Shown here: piece by piece, positions 15,525 to 64,000 of the stretch
Numbering within the stretch: the stretch's first letter is position 1
Layout: every line of letters starts with the position of its first letter
DNA from: Obrimoposthia wandeli
Taxonomy: Eukaryota
Assembly: GCA_977020255.1 (NCBI GenBank)
Contig: CDROCS010000004.1
Location: 558,001-622,000, forward strand
Direction of reading: 5' to 3'
Length of the DNA: 64,000 nucleotides
Translations under genes and position numbers: made by a program
Notes under the pieces: model-generated
What the model was told of the DNA's origin: nothing
Database searches by the model: none
Seen by the model: only the letters and a program-made list of their open reading frames with translations

Positions 15525-15699
15525 AGTAGGTGGATGTGTCCGGTCTAATCCACACCCCGCTTGTCCTTTAAAACCGTGCATGTGTGTGGAGTGAAATTTC
15601 ACTCCACATACCTACACGAAATTTCACTCCACACACATGCACGGTTTTAAAGGACAAGGGGGGGAGGGGGGTGGATTAGACCGGACACATCCACCTACT
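15525..15699. mobile_element. 175-bp non-autonomous mini-Polinton (TIR-only, MITE-like)
   Basis: Arms 15525-15600 and 15618-15699 are near-perfect inverted repeats starting AGTAGG and ending CCTACT. They are flanked by the direct repeat CACCGA (15519-15524, 15700-15705). The same TIR ends the Polinton at 37321. Confidence 0.92.
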
Positions 15700-28705: not shown

Positions 28706-29455
28706 GGAAAAACTGTAGAAGACTTATGGAAACGTAATTGTCTACGGTTTTGAAATGATGAGTGTAAACTAATAACATATAGTAGAAAGTACAACTTTAA
28801 GCGTATTTTTACAATTGTAGATTACTTGGTAGCAGTGTTATTAGGAAAACAGAGTATTTGTCTCGATCGACCGAATTATATAAGTCAAACGGTTTTGGAC
28901 ATTTAAAACTCAGAATGTACGAGCTCCAATATATAGAATTAGATAAATATCACAACGAATTTAATTGTAAGATCAAAATCGCAAATGGGGACGTTGATTG
29001 TTCTTTTTAGAATGTATGAATGTAACTCTAAATAATCAATTATTATCGGCAATGTTTAGGGATAACTTACTTGATATCAATAAATATCCCGTTAATTATC
29101 CTCTACACTTTATGAGTTTAAATATTATTATCGGGAAATTTAAGGATGAAAGCGAGGGTCAGGTTTTGTATGATGATTGTATTTTCCTACGCCCTAAATG
29201 CTACAGTTTACATGCATCTAATAATATATGTTTAACGAGAGCACAGGATGTCAAAGAAACAATCTTACACATAAGGCTTACCGGATAGTTTATTATACTG
29301 GGTGTATTGAAAGCGTTGAGCCAACTAGATTTATTTCAAGAGCCCATTAATTGTATTCCCATAAGTCAACAAAAATCGATTTGATTAGAATTGACGACAA
29401 GTGCTTTTGGGTAGAAAAGAACGCTAGCCTGGCTTATGGACACTTTAGAATTTAA
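28706..29455 (+). pseudogene. Protein-primed family B DNA polymerase (pPolB), C-terminal fragment
   Basis: GKTVED..., ICLDRPNYISQTVLD, IIGKFKDE...FLRPKCYSL and DDKCFWVEKNASLAYGHFRI* are collinear with the pPolB at 62276-63475. Several frameshifts; the N-terminal half is absent. Confidence 0.9.
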
Positions 29456-29716
29456 ATGGTTTTCATTTTTTGATTTTTTTAGTTTAGTTTTTTTTAATTT
29501 TAGATCCCTATGGCACCTTGACTCTAACTTTTTGTTATTTCAATACTTTTTTTAGGTTGGGCCTTATCTTTGCTGACAGATCTCATTGTGATGTTGTGTT
29601 TAATAAATGTATTAAAAAAATTTCGTCTTATGTCTTTTATTATTTTACCCTTATATTTTTAGGGATTTAAAAATAATTCAAAATAAAACATTAAAAATAT
29701 TTATTTTTATAACACA

Positions 29717-30098
29717 CTAATCGTATTGCAACGATAACCATAAAATACATAAATATTCACAGTTTCTCGTCACAGGATCCTGATATTGTATCTTGTTGTA
29801 AAATACTCTTCTTCGTCCTTTTTGAATAGTCGAAACAAGTTTGTGTGGATAATACATTGCAAGTGGATCAAATACATGTATTGTCCACTCTCTAACATAA
29901 ATAGCTATCTAATGTTCTCCTGGTAAATTTGAGGTATGAGTATTGATAATGTAACCTCCAGATTGAAAAAATGGGATCATATCAATAGGATAAACTCCAT
30001 TGAATTTATCACCCAGGACCTTCTCTGCTGATTCTTTTACTTGTACTGAACTAAATAAAAATTAATAAATATAAATTTTAAAAAATGTCTTACTCCAT
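29717..30098 (-). pseudogene. Adenain-like cysteine protease (Polinton PRO) with a 43-nt intron
   Basis: After removing GTAAGA...TTTAG (30093-30051): MDSVQVKE...GVYPID...IINT..NLPGEH*IAIY...VFDP...QYQD...RNCEYLC. His, Asp, Gln and Cys catalytic positions are present. A TAG (29911-29909) replaces the expected W. Confidence 0.85.
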
Positions 30099-30099
30099 T

Positions 30100-31304
30100 C
30101 TATAATATGACAGTTCTGTTTTATTGATTTGTATTTCCAAATCAAATACTCCTTAAATAAACTGCATTGAACTTAATTTCTAGTCGTACATTTTCATCTT
30201 TTGGTAGTTGGCATTGGTTTATATCAAAGTCTAGTGCCAAAACAAATATGAAGAACGGGCAGCTACTTTTAAACTCAGTGAAAGAAATACCATTGTTTAT
30301 ATTTTTATCTAGTTGACCCAAATTCCGAATAATAGATTGCGTATAAGCCAAAGCATAAGCGTTACCTTCGAAATCTGTTTTATATGTTTCGCGATAATCA
30401 GTATTTCTTGAAAGTGTCACTAAACCTACATTAAGATTGTCAAATCGAGTTGCATCTGTCGTATAATTTCCTAGAAACTTTGCAGTTTTTTGAAAAGAAA
30501 TAAAAATTAATTTTGGTATTCTTACATCACCAAAAGTTTGATCCTTATTAAAAGCTTGCGTACCAGTACCCAAAGAGTATGTTATAAGTTTAGTTTCTCA
30601 AATAGGATAACAAGCATTGTTTTTTCCATTTCTATATTATGTACCATTAAAACTAATTGATCGGTTTTAACTCTTCGGACATACAATTTTGCATCCAAAA
30701 TATCAAGTCTAGGTTTTAGAACGTCTGTGCTTATCAAAGAAATATTCAATTTATTACGGTTTCAAACGAAGATGTACATTAACACCAAGAATTAAATATT
30801 TCGGTTGTTCAAAGAAATTCAATCTCAAAGACCCACACATTTCGTAAGCTTTAGAACCCGCAATCCATTCTTTGCGAGTTGCAACCGTTTTATCATAACA
30901 AATGGTTGCCAAATTAGTATTTTGAGTATCAGTACTATAATTCAAAGACTTTTAATCAAAGCTTTATGAGCATAGGAAGAATTTCCACCTTCAATTTTGA
31001 CATTATTAAGAGTAACAATGGTATCACTAAATAAAGAATTAAAGAGATAATTAACAGGTGTTACATCAGCATTTTCATCTAAATTAGTACCATCCAGATT
31101 TAATACTTTTATTTGAACATAAACCAAAGTATCATTCAAATCTAAATATTCGCTATTGGAACCATTAATATTAAATTCTAAATCGGTTAAAGTGGTTCCT
31201 GAAACTGAGTTAACTAGAAATATTTCTTCAAAGGAAGCATTATCTTCCACTACTTGTGGAAGTAGTTTATCAAAAATACACAATTCGGTTTTGGCACAAC
31301 TCAT
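30100..31304 (-). pseudogene. Major capsid protein (double jelly-roll, Polinton PY / adintovirus hexon-like)
   Basis: MSCAKTELCIFD...LEFNINGSNSEYLDLNDT; GSLRLNFFEQPKYLILGV; DAKLYVRRVK; YPI*; FISF..., C-terminal EIQINKNRTVIL*. Frameshifts near 30945, 30755 and 30150. Confidence 0.9.
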
Positions 31305-31678
31305 TTTGCAAATATTGTTCCTTCAACATTCTTACGTTTGTTTATATTAATTTTTTGTTTCTTTTTACGTTTAAATCCACTACCTGCTTGGCTTTTATTT
31401 GATTTACCTTTTCTAATCAAATTAGCAACTTCAGGTAAAACATTATCAAGTTCATCAAGTGCATGTTTCTTAAAAGTTGGTATTAGTTTATTAACCTTAG
31501 ATGAAAGGTAATCCTTTCCTAATTTTCATATAAATCGCCCGAGTCTTTTTAAAAGAGGAAAGATAAATTTACCTAATGTTCTAAGCCAGCCAGATCCATA
31601 TTGTTTACCAACAAAATATGGTAATTCTCCACCTTGTTGGCTTTGACTATAAGCTTCAATTATTGCTGAATTCGCCAT
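31301..31678 (-). pseudogene. Conserved Polinton core/membrane-active precursor (pVI/pVII-like) with putative adenain sites
   Basis: Not in the ORF track. Reads MANSAIIEAYSQSQQGGELPYFVGKQYGSGWLRTLGKFIFPLLKRLGRFI*KLG...; after a frameshift, QAGSGFKRKKKQK...IFAK*. Its stop overlaps the MCP ATG (ATGA). Internal TGA at 31528-31526. Confidence 0.75.
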
Positions 31679-32669
31679 TTTGTTTTCTTAAATGTATTGT
31701 TAAACCTGTCTTGGCCCCGTACGTGAAATCTATTAGTTGTCCGGAATCATCTCTAATATTTACTTCAATATTGTTTATAGAAAAGAGAGAAACCGGAAGA
31801 TACATTGATTTATCTATACACATACCGACAGCGTCCCCATCTCTAGTTTCATTTTTAGATATCCATATTGTTCTCAAAAGTGGAACTCGCTGTCCTCCTA
31901 CAAGCGTTGGTTCTATTAAATTAGTATAAATATATAAATGATTAACAGCATTTAAAAGTTTTGCCTTATTTTTAGCTTTTATGGTTTTTATTGTATGGGT
32001 TTCAAAGGTATTTCTGTTTAAACCAAGGTTTTTAGTGAGTTTATCATTAAATGAAACCCGTTTTATGTTGCTCTTTACTGTAAACGTTAATTTACCATTT
32101 AATGTTACACATTTAACGAAATATTCACTACATTCCTTCTGTATTAATTTACATAAATCCACTTTACTAACTATTTTATAATCTTTTGAAAACATTTTCA
32201 GTTCCACTACAGTCTTTGGTCTCGTTTCAAGTAACAACACTTTTGCTACTCTACCAGGAACATTTCTAACCAACTTATCAAAACAAAATTGAAGAGCTTC
32301 TTTTTTAGATTCAAAGTTAATTTTAATAACTTGAAGATATTTTAATCGATTTTTAAATCTGACTTTGTTATTTTCAAATATTAATTTCACTTCTTTATCT
32401 ATACAATTGTAATATCATTGTCCTTTACTATCAAACCCGATCACAACTTTAGTTGTTTTTTCATGATCAACTTCTTTTGTAAACGAAATATGTGAGTTTT
32501 TTCTGATAGTAATTGGAGAATAATAAAAAGAAAATTCTGTTAAAGCCGCTTCCCATTCTCCTTGAAGATTTATAGGATTTTATCAATCGATAATAAAGTT
32601 ACTAGCGTCATTATCTGGTTGAGTCTTCAGGCATCCGTCACTAAGTAACACCATATACATAGACTTCAT
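31656..32669 (-). pseudogene. Minor capsid protein (penton, Polinton PX)
   Basis: Starts MKSMYMVLLSD...PDNDASNF...PINLQGEWEAALTEF at 32669. C-terminus LYIYTNLIEPTLVGGQRVPLLRTI...YLPV...INNIEVNIRDDSG...LTIHLRK. In-frame stops in the 5' third. Confidence 0.88.
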
Positions 32670-33644
32670 ATTATATTAGATGCTGATATCCAAGTTGGGT
32701 CTGAATAACCATGCCATTTAACAAAGTATTGTTTATGTTTACCGGTACCCTTAGATTTTAATATTTTTTGAATACGGAAAACGATAGGTTAATTTGATAT
32801 TACTTGTAGTTCTTGCTCGTAAAATTTATCGTGAACGATATTAATGTCAGCATCTTTAATAGTATACATTATTGGATTACTCTTTTGATCAATTTTTCTT
32901 ATACAAAATATTTCATCGCTCCAATTCTGATCAAAGTTTTAAATAAATTCGAACATATTCGTTTTTCTTATATTTAGCTTTTTTAATGTTTTCTTTTTTA
33001 TTCCTGTTCATCCAAATATCCATAGAGTTTTTATTAGTAACATCAACAGATCTCATTCCCTTGAGATCTCTATGTTCAGATTGATTATATGCATGTATTA
33101 TCTTAGTTAAAACTTGGATCCATTTTTTATTTCCTTCTTTTGTGAAAAACATTTTTATTCGATCTCTTAAAGTACGATTAAATCTTTCTACTACTGCCGC
33201 TTTGTACCGTGAAAACACAGAGTAGTGATTTATATTATTTTGTTTAAATAATGATTGAACTTGCTTATTATAAAATTCTTTTCCTAAATCAGTTTGCACA
33301 TTTTGTGGAATGTTCTCTTTTAATATTTCTTTAATGGCTTCAAACATAGCTATTGAAGACTTTGCTTTAACTGAAATTACACGAACTATAATATATCGAT
33401 ATCCCTTATTAATGGAAGAATATAGGATCATCTCCATCAAATCCATTTGCAATAAATTATTAAGACCGCTGGTTTTGTAAGCTCTAGTTGGAAACCTTCT
33501 TCTCATCGGCTTGTTCAGACTGTAGGCTAACTTGTCGCTCAGCCATTTCTGTGTTTTCTTGTAATTTTGTTTTGTTCTTTTTGCTAATTTTGAAACTCCG
33601 GTGTAGCCAATTGGATCTTTTGGATTGAACCATATCTTCTCCAT
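32666..33644 (-). pseudogene. Retroviral-like (c-)integrase with C-terminal chromodomain
   Basis: MEKIWFNPKDPIGYTG...RRRFP; DDE residues in QMDL / QTDLGKEF / VVERFNRTL. After a frameshift at ~32935: QNWSDEIF...FYEQELQ...YFVKWHGYSDPTWI*. The stop overlaps the penton ATG. Confidence 0.92.
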
Positions 33645-33730
33645 TACAACAATTTGAATAGAAAGAAAATTTAAATTTAGGTGAAGAAGGGTTAGCACCC
33701 ATATCTTTAGCTGATTTTATAAATAATTGT

Positions 33731-34060
33731 TTATGAACGTGTCGCAGCTATAATACTACTGATAATTGAAGCAACAACTGGAATAACAGACCCTACGAAA
33801 CCACCATTATGTTTAAGAACAATATTTCGTTTCCTTTTTTTATTTTTTACATTAGCAATATCTAGAAGAGTTTTTCTATATTTCTTTAATATATTTTTCC
33901 GTTTTCCAACTTTTACTCGACCCAAAACTATATTATACAAAACTTCCAATAAATCATCTACAACAAAAGATGGAAATGCTTTATGAATAATCATTCTCTT
34001 ATGAGAAGAGGCTTTGACTAAAGCTTTAAAATAGGGTATGCTTCTTTGTATTTTCTTCAT
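33731..34060 (-). CDS. Basic Polinton core protein precursor, adenovirus pX-like C-terminus
   Basis: Intact 109-aa Lys/Arg-rich ORF ending KHNGG|FVGSVIPVVASIISSII, which resembles the adenoviral pX xxGG|hydrophobic tail. Confidence 0.7.
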   Translation of the reverse strand: MKKIQRSIPYFKALVKASSHKRMIIHKAFPSFVVDDLLEVLYNIVLGRVKVGKRKNILKKYRKTLLDIANVKNKKRKRNIVLKHNGGFVGSVIPVVASIISSIIAATRS

Positions 34061-34196
34061 TTTAATAAGAAGGTTCAATTTAAATATTGTTTATATTCGA
34101 AGCCATTTAAGTTTTTTTTATTTCTAACTACAGATTTGATTAATTTTTTCACTTCTTTTACGTTTTACTATCAACTTCGTAAAAGGCATTGCAAAT

Positions 34197-34822
34197 TTAT
34201 TTTTTATAATTGTTCTCTATTTGTTTATAAACAGTTACTCCATTAGAATTAAATATGTCTGTTAAAACACGTAAATCATCTGGGCAAGTTTGTATAAAGT
34301 CAATAAATATATACCCATGTGCTTGTTTAGCAGCATCATGGAATGAATCAACTAGAAAGTTCTTATTTTGAGGAAACGCCTGTCTGACCACAAAATCTAC
34401 AACTGTTTGATCTCTAGGATTTTATGTACATTTCTTGTTCTATGGTGACCTCCTTGGTGAAAACGATTTTGGGTGATAAATATAACTGTTACTTCACGAT
34501 GTCTTGCAATTTTTCCAAATAAATTATTAAAGTCTGATTCCTTGTTAGCTTCCTGATACAAATCATTAATTATTATTACATCTTCTTTTTTCAATCTTTC
34601 ACACCAATTTGCATCAAATCCTTCAATAAATTGTATTCCCTTCATCTTGCAAACTTCTGTTTTGGTTAATCCGCTTTCCCCTCCTCCACCATGATGCCAA
34701 TAAATATTTTTGAAACTAGATTTGAAAAGAGATTCATTTTGCAACAATTTACATACAAAATGTGTCTTTCCACTTCCACTGAGACCAACTATTTGAAATA
34801 CAGCATTATTATTTAGCTCCAT
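34197..34822 (-). pseudogene. A32/FtsK-like genome packaging ATPase
   Basis: Walker A GLSGSGKT, Walker B IIINDL, RHREVTVIFITQN; then, after a frameshift/deletion at ~34415, KNPRDQ...RQAFP...HGYIFID. Confidence 0.9.
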
Positions 34823-34859
34823 TGCATATACTCTTTCATTTTTAATATTGTTTATATTA

Positions 34860-35132
34860 TCATAGAAGTTTCCTTATTGAAATGTACAATGTTAGAGCTA
34901 TTGTAGATGAAATACAAAAATTAATTAATGAATATTTGGCTATAATTTTATTTATTTGTGTATGATTTCTTAATTCTCGAATAACGTGTAATCTAACCAA
35001 TATTTCAATGTTATCTCTTGTTATATCATTATTTTTTAATTCTGATAAAATTTCTTTACCCCTAATTTTTCCAGAAAATATTTCATCGGCAAGCCAATCC
35101 ACTTCATTGTCTCTATTTATAGTATTATTCAT
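34860..35132 (-). CDS. Small hypothetical Polinton protein with C-terminal hydrophobic helix
   Basis: Intact 90-aa ORF from ATG 35132, co-oriented between the TBP-like gene and the ATPase; ends LINFCISSTIALTLYISIRKLL. Confidence 0.6.
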   Translation of the reverse strand: MNNTINRDNEVDWLADEIFSGKIRGKEILSELKNNDITRDNIEILVRLHVIRELRNHTQINKIIAKYSLINFCISSTIALTLYISIRKLL

Positions 35133-35160
35133 TTGAAACAATAAGTTTAAACGGGTTTGT

Positions 35161-35657
35161 TTATAGAAAAGATAACAAGTTGTAATAAGATATATTTTCT
35201 AAAATCAAATCAACAATGTCTGGATAATCAAAATTTTTCAATCCCAATATCATAACTTTACCACTGGAAAATATATTTACACATAGAGGTTTAAACTTCA
35301 AATAACTGAAAGCAGGAAAAATTTCTGGTTCAAACATGCATTCTTCTTTCATTTTCTCTGCAGTTTTAAAAAGATTTATCTGTTTCCCAAGATTAGCTGA
35401 AATCGTGATTGATTGTATTGCAGTGATTTGAATTCCAAATGGTAAATTGAACCCAAGCATTGGTATTTTGCATCCAATAACACGACAATTTCCTAAAAGA
35501 ATTCAATATGGAAATAAAAAAACTAACCTGTAGGAAAAATAACAACTGTGAAATTGTCAAACTTTTCTACATATTGTGTCGGCTTCCATTCATTGAATGG
35601 TAAGTATAAAACATCATCTTCTGTTCTACCTTTATAATTTGTATTTACGAGTTTCAT
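35161..35657 (-). CDS. Polinton-encoded TATA-box-binding-protein-like protein (two TBP repeats, 35-nt intron)
   Basis: Exons 35657-35528 and 35492-35161, intron GTTAG...TTTTAG, giving 153 aa with no stop. Repeat 1: TVVIFPTG|NCRVIGCK. Repeat 2: ISANLGKQINL...FEPEIFPAFSY...VNIFSSGKVMILGLK. TBP consensus is YEPELFPGLIY...IFxSGKVVxTGAK. Confidence 0.85.
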
Positions 35658-35769
35658 TAGACTAAAATTGTATTTTATAAAATCTTCTTTATATGTCTGA
35701 ACCTGCTTTTTTATTGCACGTTTCTTATAATTATCTTGAAAACCTATTATAATTGGATGATATATTTCT

Positions 35770-35890
35770 TCCAATCAAATTTGATTTTTAATATGGATTT
35801 AGTCCAATCAAATCCAATGCTTTATTTATATTAACCAATGAAATTTATGTCTTTGTTAGAAATTAGTATAAAAGAATGCGCCATTGGAGG
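35770..35890. promoter_or_regulatory. Putative divergent promoter with a CCAAT-box cluster
   Basis: CCAAT at 35771, 35804, 35814 and 35835, plus ATTGG at 35883. Lies between the minus-strand gene block and the plus-strand ORFs starting at 35935. Confidence 0.45.
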
Positions 35891-35934
35891 ACAAATCACA
35901 GTAAATGCATTCATATCATAGACAATTATCAACG

Positions 35935-36350
35935 ATGGACGATAGCCAACGGATATTAAGCGGTGACGAAGATATAGAAATGTTTGAAGAATCGGATAAG
36001 GATATGTATGAAGAAGTGAAACAATATTTCAAATACAAAGTCAGATTCTTGAAGAAGGCTCAACTGATTGCTTTAGTAAAGTGAAATAAGTGAAATAAGA
36101 AAGTTCAGCTAATATCTATCAAATATTCAAAAACCAGATTTTCAATATCTTAAACAGAAAATTGAAAAGGCAGTTCCGAATTTTACTTTCAATAAGAACG
36201 AATTTTATATCCGAGGACCTGATGAAGCATTTCTAGATGACTATGGAAGATATGTTGATATTGATGCGTTTCTAAAAAAGAATTCGACTTTATGGTTACA
36301 AGAAAGATGAAATGGGAACAAAGTTGTATATGTGGAAAATTGAATGTGCT
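35935..36350 (+). pseudogene. Degraded hypothetical Polinton gene (acidic N-terminus)
   Basis: MDDSQRILSGDEDIEMFEESDKDMYEEVKQYFKYKVRF..., interrupted by a duplicated AAGTGAAAT and by stops; inside the element. Confidence 0.4.
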
Positions 36351-36528
36351 CATTTTTCTATGTTTAAACTTTTTTCTTTTGCGTGTAATAAATTGTAATC
36401 GGTTTTACTATGTTTCTTTCATTTGGCAATTAATAATCAGTTTTAATTTTTAAATATTTGTATCTTATATGTATCTTATATGTATTTTTTTATAAACATT
36501 GTTTTTTAATCAGTTTCATTATTTTAGA

Positions 36529-36937
36529 ATGGATTCTCTTCTGAGATGTGTAGGAAATCTTTATTATCCAGAAAGAATTTCAACAGGAAAACTATGTAAT
36601 ATATTAGAGGCATCAAATTATACGAGTTATGAATCCTGTGAAAATATCTAAAGTGGAGAATAAATATCTCATCGAAATTTTAACAACATCTGATATTGAT
36701 CAATTGAAAAATATTTTGGGATTTTACATTCCTGATTATGTATATGAAGGAAATTGTTTTCAGCTTGAAACTGATTCCAGTCTGGATTTTAAATATGATC
36801 TAGGATATTTGATTGCTCCAATTCTAGATGAAGAACTATGGAATATCTCAATACGTCTCAATGGATATTTTGCTGATGACGGGAAAATGCAGCCTCTTTG
36901 GACTTTGAGTGAAGCTAATATGTTGTTTTATGTTTAA
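36529..36937 (+). pseudogene. Hypothetical Polinton gene, probably one frameshift
   Basis: MDSLLRCVGNLYYPERIST... (ATG 36529) probably joins ORF 36629-36937 (...WNISIRLNGYF...QPLWTLSEANMLFYV). An AATAAA-type signal overlaps the stop. Confidence 0.55.
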
Positions 36938-37239
36938 TAAATGTTTTGAAAAATAATTTTGACACGTATTTTGTTTTTTCTCCTCTCAATTATATAGATC
37001 TAATTTTTCTCTTATAAATCTGACCTAAATATTTAACATATAGTAATCTTTCTTAAAATAGTAGTAATATATTCACATTTGAAATCTCGTCTGCGATAAG
37101 CCGCCGGGGCCAATATGGATTCCCGTGGTCTTCTCTAACCACTTTTGAGATTCATGGTAAATTCAAAGTAAAATTTTAAAAAAATGTGGGGGGAAGACTC
37201 CCCCCTTCCCCTTTGGGAGGAATGGAGACACACATACAC

Positions 37240-37321
37240 GAAATTTCACTCCACACACATACACAGTTTTAAAGTACAGTGGGGGAGGGGGTGTGGATTA
37301 GACCGGACACATCTACCTACT
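37240..37321 (-). repeat. Right TIR of the Polinton
   Basis: GAAATTTCACTCC...GTGGATTAGACCGGACACATCTACCTACT; same layout as the arms of the 15525-15699 element. Confidence 0.9.
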
Positions 37322-38862: not shown

Positions 38863-40903
38863 ATGGATGAAGAAGTAAAGTGCTACGAGTTAAAACATTC
38901 GGAAGAAGACAATTCTCAAGTGGAGAAAGCGAAAAATCCGCAATCTGTAAAAGAAGAGTCTCCCGAGTCGAAAGACTATATCATAGTTGTGAGTCTCAAT
39001 AATGAAGGAAAATTTGTAGTGTCTAAATTAAACCAAGACGAAAGCGATGAAAATGAAAAAGTGCATGATAATGAGTCAAAAGAAGAACAAATCAAAGTTG
39101 ATAAATTAGAAAAGATAGCCTTCAAGTGCGAAGATCAGAAAGTAAGAAAGCAAAAAGCAGAGGTAGTCAAAGTTGATAATCTAAAAAAGACTGAATCAAG
39201 TTGTGAAGGTCAGAAAGATAAGGAACATAAAACAGAAGTCAAAGTTGATGATCTCAAAAAGACTGAATCAAGTTGTGAAGATCAGAAAGATAAAGAACAT
39301 AAAACAGAAGTCAAAGTTGATGATCTCAAAAAGACTGAATCAAGTTGTGAAGATCAGAAAGATAAAGAACATAAAACAGAAGTCAAAGTTGATGATCTCA
39401 AAAAGACTGAATCAAGTTGTGAAGATCAGAAAGATAAAGAACATAAAACAGAAGTCAAAGTTGATGATCTCAAAAAGACTGAATCAAGTGGTGAAACGAA
39501 ATGCCAACATGTTCCAGAAGTTGAAAAGAAAAAGGCATCTTTAACTGAGCCCACGGCTCAAGTTCCAAGAGATCCAGTGTTGACAGGAACAGTGACAGCA
39601 GAACAGTTGGATATGGGTGTGTTTGTTCCTCTGGTAGCAGTGACTAAACAAGCCATATTTTTCTCGCTACATCCATTCATGACAGTGAGCACTCGCAATA
39701 CTGTGGGTGGCAGCAGCAATATCTCCAACAGCATTTGGGTGTCTATGCGAGATATCATAAAGCGCGAAGGAGTTAAAGGCCTCTACCAGGGATCCGGGGC
39801 TCGAACTGCCTTCATTTTCGGAGGTGAGCATTTGTTTTTCACTGATATTTGAAGAGTTTTTTCTTATGACTTATATATTTTGATGAATATCAGATTACCG
39901 TACTGCTTCTTCCTATCGCAGAAATGGCACAGGTGGGTTGTTATGAGTTACTGAAGAACGCACTCCAACAGAACAACTGTATGGGGTCCTCTGGTGCATC
40001 TACAGTTGCGGGTGGAGTGGCTGCCGCAGTCAGCAAGCTTCTGTCAATTCCAGTGGAGGTGGTCAGCCAAAATTTGATGATCATTGACAAGACCGCCAAT
40101 CAACAGAAACTAACCTCATTCCGGTTCACACAGAGCCAATTGCGCACGCCCTGGATACGATTCAATAGCGTGTGTGATGCCATCTACAAGAGAAACGGCC
40201 TTAAAGGCTTCTTTACTGGCTATGGACTACGAATGTTATCAACTGTGCCCAGCAATGCCATTTGGTGGGGAGCCTACGACAAAGTTACCAGTAAGTTTGC
40301 TTTTCATTGAAATGACAAATATTTATGATGTAATTGCAATTCATATTGGAAATACTAATTCTGTCTTTTCATCGCTCAGATCATTTGTACGGGCTATTTG
40401 AGCAGCCGAACAATGAAGATGTTGAGGAAAACACATTGAACAGAAAAGCCCGGCGAGTTGCAGTGCAGAGCGTAGGGGCAGTGGGAGCCAGTGTGCTAGC
40501 TAATATGTTGATGAGCCCAATCGATGTAGTGAGAACGCATCAGCAGGTACATGGATCCCAGTTCCGTGACACGGTAAAGAAGCTGATCGACGAGCAAGGA
40601 GTTTGGCGATGGATGAGTCGAGGGTTGCGGGGTCGAATGGTGTTCGGTATTACAGGGGGTTTGGCCACCCAATTCATATACGAGCGAATGAAGGAGTACT
40701 GTGCTAACAATACTGAGGCGAATATCAGCACTGCTAGACTGAGCCTTGACCAAGCCGAAAAGATTAGCTCCGATATACAACAAGATGCAGCAAGCCATGC
40801 ATTGTCTACTGTTCCCAACATCGTCCAGTTAGACATCACCGAACAAATTCCCAGTGATATCTTCATTTCTCGCTTTAGCAAAGAATCAGATGCATTTTCC
40901 TAA
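38863..40903 (+). CDS. Mitochondrial carrier (SLC25 family, SLC25A44-like) with long N-terminal repeat extension
   Basis: Exons 38863-39823, 39922-40290 and 40380-40903 (GT-AG, phase-consistent, 617 aa). Carrier repeats HPFMTVSTR, IPVEVVSQN and SPIDVVRTH, plus GLYQG...CYE, GFFTGY...WWGAYD and GLRGRM. EQLDM.VF and WWG.Y patterns fit SLC25A44. Confidence 0.85.
39094..39489 (+). repeat. Coding tandem repeat, 72-bp unit (KVDDLKKTESSCEDQKDKEHKTEV)
   Basis: Units start at 39094 (diverged, 75 bp), 39169, 39241, 39313, 39385 and 39457 (partial). The units at 39241, 39313 and 39385 are identical. Confidence 0.95.
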
Positions 40904-41044: not shown

Positions 41045-41616
41045 AACTGTATCGACATAGACTCGTTTTATATTGCTCTTTACTGTAAACGTTATTTTAC
41101 CCATTTTTAATGTTACACATTTATCGAAATATTCAGTACATTCCTTTTGTATTAATTTACAGAAATTCACTTCATTATCTAATTTATAATCTTTTGAAAA
41201 CATTTTCAGTTCCACTACATACTTTGGTCTCGTTTCAACTAAAAACACTCTTGCTACTCTAGGAACATTTTAAAACGATTTAGATGAGGCTATATCAGAT
41301 CTCTTCATACCTACTACATGTCCACTATCAAAACCGAATTGAAGAGCTTCTTTTTCAGATGAAAATATAATTTGAATAACTTGAATAAATTTTAATCGAT
41401 TTTTAAATCTGTCTTTGTTATTTTCAATTCTAATTTTATCTATCACTGGGTGGTGTGGGTGGTGTGGGCGGTGGGCGGTGGGCGGTAGGCGGTGGGTGTT
41501 GGGCGGTGAGTGTTGGGCGGTGGGTGTTGGAGTGAAATTTCACTCCACACACATGCATGGTTTTAAAGGACAGTGGGAGGAAGGGGTGTGGATTAGACCG
41601 GACACATATACCTACT
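41045..41616 (-). mobile_element. Second, internally deleted Polinton copy (penton fragment + G-rich repeat + right TIR)
   Basis: 41065-41430 aligns closely with penton 32057-32390. TIR at 41534-41616 ends CCTACT. No left end found. Confidence 0.85.
41447..41530 (+). repeat. G-rich GGGCGGT/GGGTGTT repeat with G-quadruplex potential
   Basis: Nine GGG tracts with short loops directly inside the TIR. Confidence 0.8.
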
Positions 41617-42667
41617 CATGTTTTTCCTCTGAGTGATCGATAAAATTAGAAGTTCCTCTTCTTCACATAAAATTGGGGAAAATGAAAAAGTTTTCGTTAA
41701 ATCTTTTATCATATAAGGAATTAGTTTTAGTACATGTGCACCACGTTTAGCAAACAATTTTAAAACATAGTAAATTATTTTTAAATTATGCAGAAAGTTA
41801 GCACAAAAAAGTTTGTAAATTTAATATTTTATGAAATGGATTTTTTTTGGATAATTTTTAAATCAAAAAAATCTAAAAATCTAAATTTTTATATATGTAT
41901 CATATATAATTTAATATAAAAAGATTAGATTTTATATGGTCTCATAAGTTCCCATGTAATACTAACCTAAATTAACTAATTATACAAAATTAAAATAAAA
42001 CATAACTTACTAAATACACAATAAAATAACTATATAAAAATAACTTACCTGCATAAAATATTGTATGTTACGTGTATGTTTGAATTTTTCAAGTGTTGGG
42101 CGGTGGGTGTTGGAGTGAAATTTCACTCCACACACATGCATGGTTTTAAAGGACAGTGGGAGGAAGGGGTGTGGATTAGACCGAACACATATACCTACTC
42201 ATGTTTTTCCTCTGAGTGATCGATAAAATTAGAAGTTCCTCTTCTTCACATAAAATTGGGCAAAATGAAAAAGTTTTCGTTAAATCTTTTATCATATAAG
42301 GAATTAGTATTAGTACATGTGCACCACGTTTAGCAAACAATTTTAAAACATAGTAAATTATTTTTAAATTATGCAGAAAGTTAGCACAAAAAAGTTTGTA
42401 AATTTAATATTTTATAAAATAAATTTTTTTTTGGATAATTTTTAAATCAAAAAAATCTAAATTTTTATATATGTATCATATATAATTTAATATAAAAAGA
42501 TTAGATTTTATATGGTCTCATAAGTTCCCATGTAATACTAACCTAAATTAACTAATTATACAAAATTAAAATAAAACATAACTTACTAAATACACAATAA
42601 AATAACTATATAAAAATAACTTACCTGCATAAAATATTGTATGTTACGTGTATGTTTGAATTTTTCA
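41509..42667. repeat. Tandem duplication (~580 bp x2) of a Polinton end plus flanking DNA
   Basis: 41509-42091 and 42092-42667 are near-identical. Both contain the TIR (ending 41616 and 42199), followed by CATGTTTTTCCTCTGAG. Confidence 0.92.
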
Positions 42668-62275: not shown

Positions 62276-64000
62276 CTATCTTAGACTATAGTGTCCATAT
62301 GCGACGGATTTGTTTTTCTCAAGCCAAACCCTTTTATCGTCATAACACCTTAACGCAATTTTATCATTATACATTGTAAATAATTGATGATTACGAGATA
62401 AAATACGTGTCTGACCGGCAGTTATAATTTCATCATCAACATAACACTTTATGTAATGCTCATGTCTGATTTCGGTTTGTTTAAGGGAGATACCCTTAGC
62501 CCTCATACTCGTTTTCAATGAGTAGCATTTAGGTTTCAGAAATACCCATTCATCATAAAGCACTGTCCCCTTGCTTTCATCTTTAAACTTTCCAATCACA
62601 TTTCGATGAGAATCGTTAAATAACTCATGTGTGATCGGGTAATTACTCGTATCTAACATCTGATCTTTAATCATTTGTTTTAAGAGGACATCTTTATCTA
62701 TATGCTTACACTCTAAGAAAAACGAGTCTGTATCCATTGCAACTATGTTGATATCACAATGATATTGCTTACGATACCGGTCAAGATCACTATACTGTAG
62801 TTGGTACATATGTAGTTTAGATAAGTCCAACACAGCTTGACCAATATATGATGGTCGATCCAGACAAATTTCTTTCTTTTGCATAAATAAAAGATTGAGA
62901 TTGTCGGTTATTTGAGTATGTTTCTTAAACCAAGGGCTTGAAACAAGTTTAATAAACTGACGATCATTCTTGGTAAGACGGATATCTTTACGTTTTTTAA
63001 GATTTTCCACTGTCTTACCATATATTGAATTATTTTTGAGTTTATAAAACTCTTTATCAAATGTAGTAGTACCCTCTGCCCGTTTCTGGCTATTGATATC
63101 AATATATGTTTTAAATATAGGAGCTTGATGAAACTTTATTGCTCTATGTACTTGTTTAATTTCTGCACCCAGAAACAAGTAAAATTGTAGTAGTTGTAAG
63201 TGTATGATGTAATTATTTTTATCCTCATGGGTCATCAACAGCTTTGAAGCTTTTGAGCCGGGAGGGATTTCTCTATTAGGCGCAATCGGTAAGTCATCAA
63301 GTTTATCATGAATACTGATGGGTATGCCTAAATCAATTTCCAACAAGTATCCATGTCCTTTAAGACTTAAGTCCTGCATATTACCGTGAATATCCCTCTC
63401 AGTTATAAGCTCAATTATCGCTTCAAAACCGTCATATACCCATGTAAAATCTGTATGTGGTAACGGTTGACTCAAGGCCCAGCCATATAAGTTATTTATG
63501 TCAATGTATAGGAGGAATGTTTAATCTGTTGTTTTAACGTAATGTTTATTGATGAAAGTCATCCCTCCCCGTATCCCTGCCTCAAACATGTTATACATTT
63601 CGGGATCATGCAATAAATCCACATCATACTCTAATGTTTTTAATGCGCTAGCCCAACTGAGACTAGGGATACTAAAGAAATTGAGCGCCTCTAGATTATC
63701 ATCATCCCTTACTTTCTGTCTAAAGGCCTCAAAAACATCACATAAGAGATACACGTCAAGTTTCATATACTCAAGCATGTAGTCTTTAATAGTATTACAC
63801 CCTAATACGGTCCACATCATTAGGGCTTCATTATATTGTTGATCAGTGACTCGAGAAGGAAACTCAGATTTAGCGGGTAACTGCGTCTCCATAAGCCTAT
63901 CAACACCACTAATATATTCATATGGAAATACCGCCTTACTTGTTGCAATATTAGGGTTTAGGTATTGTGTAGTATAAGGACAACTTGGCAAGTATGAAAC
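62276..64000 (-). pseudogene. Protein-primed DNA polymerase B of a second Polinton lineage; 5'-partial, one in-frame stop
   Basis: Open from the window edge: FPYEY, YMKLDVYLLCDVFEAFR (exo III), GIRGG; single TAA at 63523-63521; then in the same frame YIDINNLYGWA (motif A), YKLKNNSIYGKTVEN (B), MDTDSFF (C), GKFKDE, DDKR, AYGHY. Confidence 0.95.

Follow-up and report, generated by a model that had tools for sequence, protein, structure and literature searches.

Why should a Polinton carry a gene for a TATA-binding protein (TBP)-like factor, and what would such a factor read? The question is raised by one locus in a 64,000-nt stretch of Obrimoposthia wandeli DNA (contig CDROCS010000004.1, positions 558,001 to 622,000; hereafter the window), where a 153-codon frame on the minus strand, 462 nt including the stop, is split into two exons around one intron. 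We call its product mini-TBP.

35528..35657, minus strand: mini-TBP exon 1, 130 nt from the ATG at 35657, 43 codons plus 1 nt, encoding N-lobe strands
35493..35527, minus strand: putative intron, 35 nt, GT...AG, phase 1
35161..35492, minus strand: mini-TBP exon 2, 332 nt ending in TAA, encoding the final strand of the N-lobe plus all of the C-lobe

The sequence-only reading had joined two ORFs through this 35-nt GT-AG intron into a 153-aa protein; the frame is borne out, and we infer that the gene is likely spliced at 35527/35493. Read unspliced, it meets an in-frame stop directly after the donor. Exon 2, which carries the acidic stirrup and two Phe, matches Pfam TBP (PF00352, E 2e-11; 43.9 bits against a curated cut-off of 22.9) and the TBPs of the PDB (best E 3e-13). 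Four database proteins with 48-52% identity to exon 2 are each a single ORF, and all four align through the exon junction, three of them reaching the start of exon 1 as well. Parsing succeeded for 24 of the 29 copies picked by their promoter sequence, and 23 of these 24 window-family copies keep the GT..AG ends, at intron lengths of 35-43 nt. Two other Polinton families of this genome, with exons only 44-57% identical, carry another short GT-AG segment at this very position, and so does the metagenome contig L094 with an intron of 40 nt; the position is thus common to three families of this genome and one outside contig. A fourth mini-TBP Polinton family of the genome is intronless, and among 80 metagenome loci the gene is continuous in 68, ambiguous in one, interrupted by an intron in one (L094) and unparsable in 10. 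With a 47-nt intron in its own TBP gene, the host could plausibly accommodate introns as short as these. The host also has two head-to-head TBP paralogues (L132/L133, G000 C238) and two further divergent TBP-like genes (L134 and L135).

What kind of TBP would this gene make? The AlphaFold2 model is alignment-based and is that of a homologue, P0001 (52% identity to exon 2), which stands in for the window protein; its pLDDT is 96.9, against 31 for the single-sequence fold. With this model Foldseek ranks TBP first at a TM of ~0.75, and VIA gives Z 13.7 to TBP over all 146 residues at an rmsd of 2.7 Å, the first non-TBP match following at Z 6.2, so that a TBP saddle, as the sequence-only reading would lead one to expect, is predicted for the homologue. 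The modelled beta-saddle is two-lobed with a complete C-lobe. In the N-lobe the strands are kept but neither helix is, there being no helix of four or more residues before position 84, and an alignment of mini-TBP with archaeal-type TBP places a gap at the N-lobe helix region. The earlier view that both TBP repeats are present accordingly holds in full for the C-lobe, and for the N-terminal repeat only as far as its strands.

A similar division applies to the Phe residues said to be retained for DNA intercalation. Three DNA-kinking Phe are invariant among homologues (90/90, 91/91 and 90/90), whereas the fourth, a position that we map by motif, is Tyr in the window protein and variable in the family. 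In addition, a family-invariant Arg, Met and Asn stand where cellular TBP has Val, Thr and Leu; we take these positions to face DNA, in which case the replacements would fit a changed specificity. The Glu-x-Glu of the C-lobe stirrup is kept in 82/91 and 89/91 homologues. In PMC7221094 this glutamate pair is described as contacting TFIIB, and the basic patch of N-lobe helix H2 is assigned to TFIIA, TAF1, Brf and Mot1. TFIIB (PF00382) was not found as a multicopy family, the genome giving 12 matches as compared with at least 150 mini-TBP copies, and it is absent among the 44 element ORFs scanned, a search that may overlook a strongly diverged TFIIB. The retained stirrup, the lost N-lobe helices and the lack of a multicopy TFIIB together suggest a factor working with the TFIIB of the host and evading the N-lobe regulators; judging from the model, mini-TBP would contact host TFIIB and, having lost the N-lobe helices, would escape TFIIA, TAF1, Mot1 and Brf.

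Does the gene belong to the element? The mini-TBP gene is present in at least 150 copies in the genome with exon-2 identity of 96-100%, and when 10 copies were extended to 20 kb, paired terminal inverted repeats (TIRs) with an exact 6-bp target site duplication (TSD) were found in four and with a near-exact TSD in one. These window-family elements bounded by TIR and TSD are 12-18 kb long, and one copy of a second mini-TBP family likewise has TIRs and a 6-bp TSD. Mini-TBP thus lies inside TIR/TSD-bounded Polintons, as had been supposed. Window-family copies encode pPolB (PF03175), an rve integrase (PF00665) and an A32 ATPase (PF04665), and the relative L073 has an adenain-like protease (Peptidase_C5, E 1e-7) after the capsid gene. 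The window copy itself is truncated; it spans 28706-37321 with a single TIR, and its genes for the ATPase, integrase, capsid and pPolB are all broken.

37228..37321, no strand: terminal inverted repeat of the Polinton
35905..36365, plus strand: divergent ORF beside mini-TBP, broken here
35658..35904, no strand: putative divergent promoter region, six CCAAT boxes (both strands counted), no YATAAACR
34860..35132, minus strand: 90-aa ORF
34200..34873, minus strand: A32-like packaging ATPase (Pox_A32), broken in the window copy
33731..34060, minus strand: basic 109-aa core-like ORF with a weak Adeno_PX-like end (E 0.08)
32669..33716, minus strand: rve integrase, broken in the window copy
31659..32675, minus strand: putative minor capsid gene, by position and size only
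30160..31322, minus strand: putative major capsid gene, broken in the window copy
28706..29186, plus strand: pPolB C-terminal remnant (PF03175 in a related copy), where the element breaks off

The putative major capsid protein gives a weak Capsid_N match in two of seven relatives (best E 0.007) and aligns by hhalign to a double jelly-roll (DJR) protein at E 3e-4; it has no PDB match, and the minor capsid has no Pfam match. Mini-TBP is the first gene of the structural block and lies beside a CCAAT/TATA-rich divergent promoter, as originally described, with TATA-like words ~36 and 22 nt upstream of its ATG. The divergent ORF neighbours mini-TBP in 14 of 81 related loci and has no Pfam match; its product is a possible partner of mini-TBP. 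An assignment of this ORF to sigma-70 region 2 was rejected, as the Atlas leads were all below 0.9. Its homologues have their own GT-AG intron-like segment of 43-46 nt, located upstream, in seven of seven relatives checked (L052, L054, L057, L061, L065, L069 and L076).

Further traces of these elements surround the copy. At 15525-15699 the window holds a 175-bp self-inverted MITE-like element made of two TIR ends of the mini-TBP Polinton, and similar pieces flank other Polinton copies. A local duplication at 41051-42199 includes a minor-capsid fragment (41061-41427) and solo TIR ends (41534-41616 and 42117-42199), and the pPolB at 62540-63970 belongs to a second Polinton family and shares 51% identity with that of the window family. 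A host-like mitochondrial-carrier gene (Pfam Mito_carr) occupies 38863-40903, with a long charged-repeat frame upstream. In G000 (C1857, C550, C1859, C3084 and C4559; L144-L163) the mini-TBP Polintons fall into at least four families, often mutually nested, and in the first 2.2 kb of L039 (C2991) and L041 (C1895) short tandem repeats are strongly expanded just inside the TIRs. Mini-TBP Polintons also contain, or lie next to, accessory genes for BIR/IAP, ubiquitin-conjugating, KilA-N, PLA2-like and RING domains (L149:3-899, L080:225-719, L113:7136-9478 and L116:13315-13893).

How widely is the gene distributed, and is it under selection? A search with P0001 returned 102 clusters at E of 1e-10 or below among 50%-identity representatives, and a mini-TBP profile returned 1140 proteins at 1e-12, a total that may include canonical TBPs. 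A core Polinton gene is found in 40 of the 81 related loci (29 of the 39 that are at least 3 kb long), in several gene orders, and the loci without one are mostly short. Judging from these sequences, there is a wide Polinton-linked family of TBP-fold proteins of ~150 aa, mostly intronless. A stripped-down TBP-fold gene carried by Polintons is supported; the idea that it is private to one lineage gives way to a broad family, in view of the homologue clusters and the 81 related loci. No match was found with P0001 or the ATPase in the viral contig collection, nor in the phage collection. The scans of viral contigs did bring up one giant-virus-like contig (L051:9737-10282), which carries a full two-repeat TBP of 182 aa near PolB and ribonucleotide reductase. 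In a tree of 43 rows a 100/100 branch separates the 31 mini-TBP rows from the TBPs of host, plants, archaeal type and one giant virus, and mini-TBP does not group with the host TBP.

Among the natural ORFs of relatives the median dN/dS is 0.22 (67 non-independent pairs), a value that shows purifying selection. Within this genome, singleton pN/pS values of 1.0-1.2 indicate neutral decay of the copies. In the copies picked by their promoter sequence, an intact exon 2 is seen in 12/25 and an intact exon 1 in 22/28, and mini-TBP carries ~2 lesions per kb compared with 1.5-2.9 per kb in three neighbouring genes of the same copies. Hence the statement that mini-TBP stayed intact as its flanking genes decayed is true of the window copy, but not as selective preservation, and we reject the notion that selection within the host keeps it intact, as its copies decay like their neighbours. 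For variants shared within the window family, pN/pS is 0.77-0.95 for TBP (23 N and 7 S changes only) and 0.31 for the ATPase, which either argues against current strong selection on TBP in this family or reflects the small numbers.

What, then, could mini-TBP recognize? In window-family elements ATAAACAA occurs at 9-15 sites per element as compared with 2-3 in shuffles, almost always just upstream of a structural-block gene or a DEDD-like gene. The window copy has nine YATAAACR sites:

35158..35165, minus strand: overlaps the stop codon of TBP, ahead of the 90-aa ORF
34849..34856, minus strand: before the packaging ATPase
34222..34229, minus strand: before a short ORF downstream of the ATPase
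34088..34095, minus strand: before the basic 109-aa core-like gene
33728..33735, minus strand: before a small ORF and the integrase
32730..32737, minus strand: before the putative minor capsid gene
31772..31779, minus strand: before the ORF preceding the major capsid gene
31339..31346, minus strand: before the putative major capsid gene
30294..30301, minus strand: within the final part of the capsid gene, ahead of where the protease would lie

Among metagenome relatives, YATAAACR stands before 26/29 ATPase genes, 8/8 major capsid genes, 9/9 genes for the basic protein, 5/9 minor capsid genes, 8/19 integrase genes and 10/14 DEDD-like genes; upstream of these genes it was never antisense, and the shuffle expectation is at most 0.5 per gene class. 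Before the TBP genes themselves it is absent (0/67), and TATAWAWR precedes 27 of these 67 as compared with 9.2 expected. At conserved starts YATAAACR is found in 60 of 67 cases at a median of 38 nt from the ATG, 50 of the 60 lying within 25-60 nt and two at under 25 nt, a spacing that matches that of the canonical TATA before TBP genes. In the same upstream windows ATAAAC occurs 76 times and GTAAAC four times, and the motif is fixed across lineages with ~36% ATPase identity. As a control, the same genome offers C2184, a TIR-bounded Polinton that belongs to a different lineage and has DJR capsid, integrase, ATPase and pPolB; it has no match to the TBP profile and YATAAACR before 0/12 of its ORFs, although its 15.6-kb span still holds nine motif matches elsewhere, and this TBP-less control is a contrast with a single lineage. 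No TBP-less element of the mini-TBP Polinton lineage was found. In the C2184 element (G000:C2184:63278-78328, L216-L217, 15 kb) genes start after T-rich and then A-run stretches.

Based on our data we propose that mini-TBP is a late-promoter factor that binds YATAAACR and, through the TFIIB and Pol II of the host, brings about expression of the packaging, integrase and capsid genes, a reading that we consider fairly probable and in which we infer the DNA binding, the TFIIB contact and the timing of expression. The host machinery would express mini-TBP first, from the CCAAT/TATA-type region. Mini-TBP would then bind the element's own YATAAACR and once bound would bring in TFIIB and RNA polymerase II from the host, so that the packaging, integrase and capsid genes would be switched on in an early-to-late cascade. 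As the mini-TBP gene lies behind an ordinary CCAAT/TATA-type region, the host would be able to express it first. Since most copies are decaying and the window copy is truncated, the proposed role applies to active elements. The sequence-only reading had left the choice between a late-gene activator and a decoy for host TBP; the activator is now favoured and the decoy less so, given the motif specific to gene classes and the TBP-less control.

A decoy or repressor is nevertheless conceivable, if unlikely. Here host TBP or a paralogue would read YATAAACR, and mini-TBP would titrate TFIIB or occupy TATA boxes, thereby silencing host or early genes. A kept TFIIB stirrup with a lost coactivator surface also fits a dominant-negative protein, and the host has several TBP paralogues. 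Against the late-factor reading stand the lost fourth Phe, the lack of a clear purifying signal for TBP among the shared variants of the window family, and the related loci that show no core Polinton gene. In addition, host TBP alone may read TATAAAC; the title of PDB 1qn3 describes wild-type TBP bound to the C(-25) TATA variant, so that host TBP can bind a C-containing variant. Yet a decoy does not account for the fixation of a single non-consensus word ahead of structural genes from lineage to lineage, nor for its absence before the TBP gene and before the ORFs of the TBP-less C2184 element.

It is also improbable, in our estimate, that a host forkhead-type factor reads YATAAACR with mini-TBP working at other promoters. 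ATAAACA does fit what we take to be the forkhead consensus, RYAAAYA, but the strict sense orientation and the TATA-like fixed spacing are not expected of such a factor, and GTAAACA, a strong forkhead site, would not be predicted to be so rare relative to ATAAAC. We give similarly little credence to a non-transcriptional role in which mini-TBP bends DNA at the termini, in replication or in genome packaging. Its gene adjoins the packaging module in several layouts, and TBP lobes are treated as general nucleic-acid-binding modules in PMC7221094; against this, the TFIIB-contacting glutamates are kept and the motif marks gene starts. That the gene is a captured fragment or pseudogene of host TBP with a chance GT-AG gap is barely credible, for although the copies of this genome decay neutrally, the separate tree branch, the dN/dS among relatives and the intron position common to diverged families largely refute it.

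How does mini-TBP, as the proposed late-promoter factor, compare with known systems? It resembles cellular TBP (PF00352; PDB 7egb_P, 1ytb and 2z8u) in the saddle, the three Phe, the acidic stirrup of the C-lobe and the full C-lobe itself. It differs in its length of ~150 aa rather than ~180, in an identity of only 22-29%, in its separate tree branch, in the N-lobe helices missing from the model, in the lost fourth Phe and in its family-specific invariant residues. With the TBP-like proteins of Nucleocytoviricota (BFVD matches, and PMC7221094) it shares the character of a virus-type TBP with a diverged N-lobe regulatory surface. According to that paper, the stirrup of giant-virus TBPs is variable (~40% conserved) and these proteins are mostly paired with a viral TFIIB of their own. 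Unlike them, mini-TBP has a near-invariant stirrup, no multicopy TFIIB was found beside it, and its element is only 12-18 kb long.

The vTBP of beta- and gamma-herpesviruses reads the late-promoter word TATT. As presented in PMC7498053, this vTBP (ORF24/BcRF1/UL87) resembles our proposal in being a viral TBP mimic that brings host Pol II to late genes through a variant TATA word. It is large, includes a domain that binds the Pol II CTD, and acts in a six-protein complex. Mini-TBP, unlike it, is a bare 153-aa domain with only weak fold matches to herpesvirus vTBPs, and as the TBP core takes up all 146 aa of the homologue in the alignment, there is no room for a Pol II CTD-binding domain.

The element itself agrees with Polinton/Maverick elements in its TIRs, 6-bp TSD, pPolB, rve integrase, A32 ATPase, adenain-like protease and putative capsid-like genes. 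It goes beyond that description in the homologue of a basal factor, in the shared late-type motif and in the putative spliceosomal-type introns of mini-TBP and of the divergent ORF of its relatives. MELD viruses whose PolB is adintovirus-like are given a "TBP" label in the Fig. 5 legend of PMC8502044 (bioRxiv 10.1101/697771), thus marking a TBP-like gene in a polinton-related element, a likeness that goes by the label in the legend only. The label belongs to a section on non-animal datasets, and the extracted text of that paper discusses no function, motif or intron and shows no TBP in its maps of animal adintoviruses. Beyond this legend, searches of mostly open literature gave no account of the mini-TBP family or its motif, and term searches of PMC12220804, 10.64898/2026.10.13.758929 and 10.1101/2023.08.22.554363 gave nothing relevant. 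Accordingly, the suggestion of an undescribed system stands in that we found no paper on this family in the texts covered, and is weakened in that viral TBPs are known and that related elements bear a TBP label in the legend of PMC8502044, so that the gene is not wholly undescribed.

It is an intriguing, though still tentative, thought that a whole Polinton lineage relies on a private two-part switch for late genes, namely a TBP of 150 aa and YATAAACR, working with host TFIIB and Pol II and with the surface for host regulators shed. To our knowledge, how the capsid genes of Polintons are turned on is not known, and a dedicated factor with a defined motif makes their control testable by ordinary binding and reporter assays. 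If the proposal is true, a late-promoter strategy in the style of herpesviruses would extend to integrating elements of 15 kb, and nature would have supplied, in mini-TBP, a minimal TBP in which the recruitment of TFIIB is uncoupled from regulation through the N-lobe, a useful tool for taking transcription initiation apart. No viral system of the TBP type for recognizing promoters would then be more compact, and mini-TBP would act as a master switch for the virion genes of Polintons.
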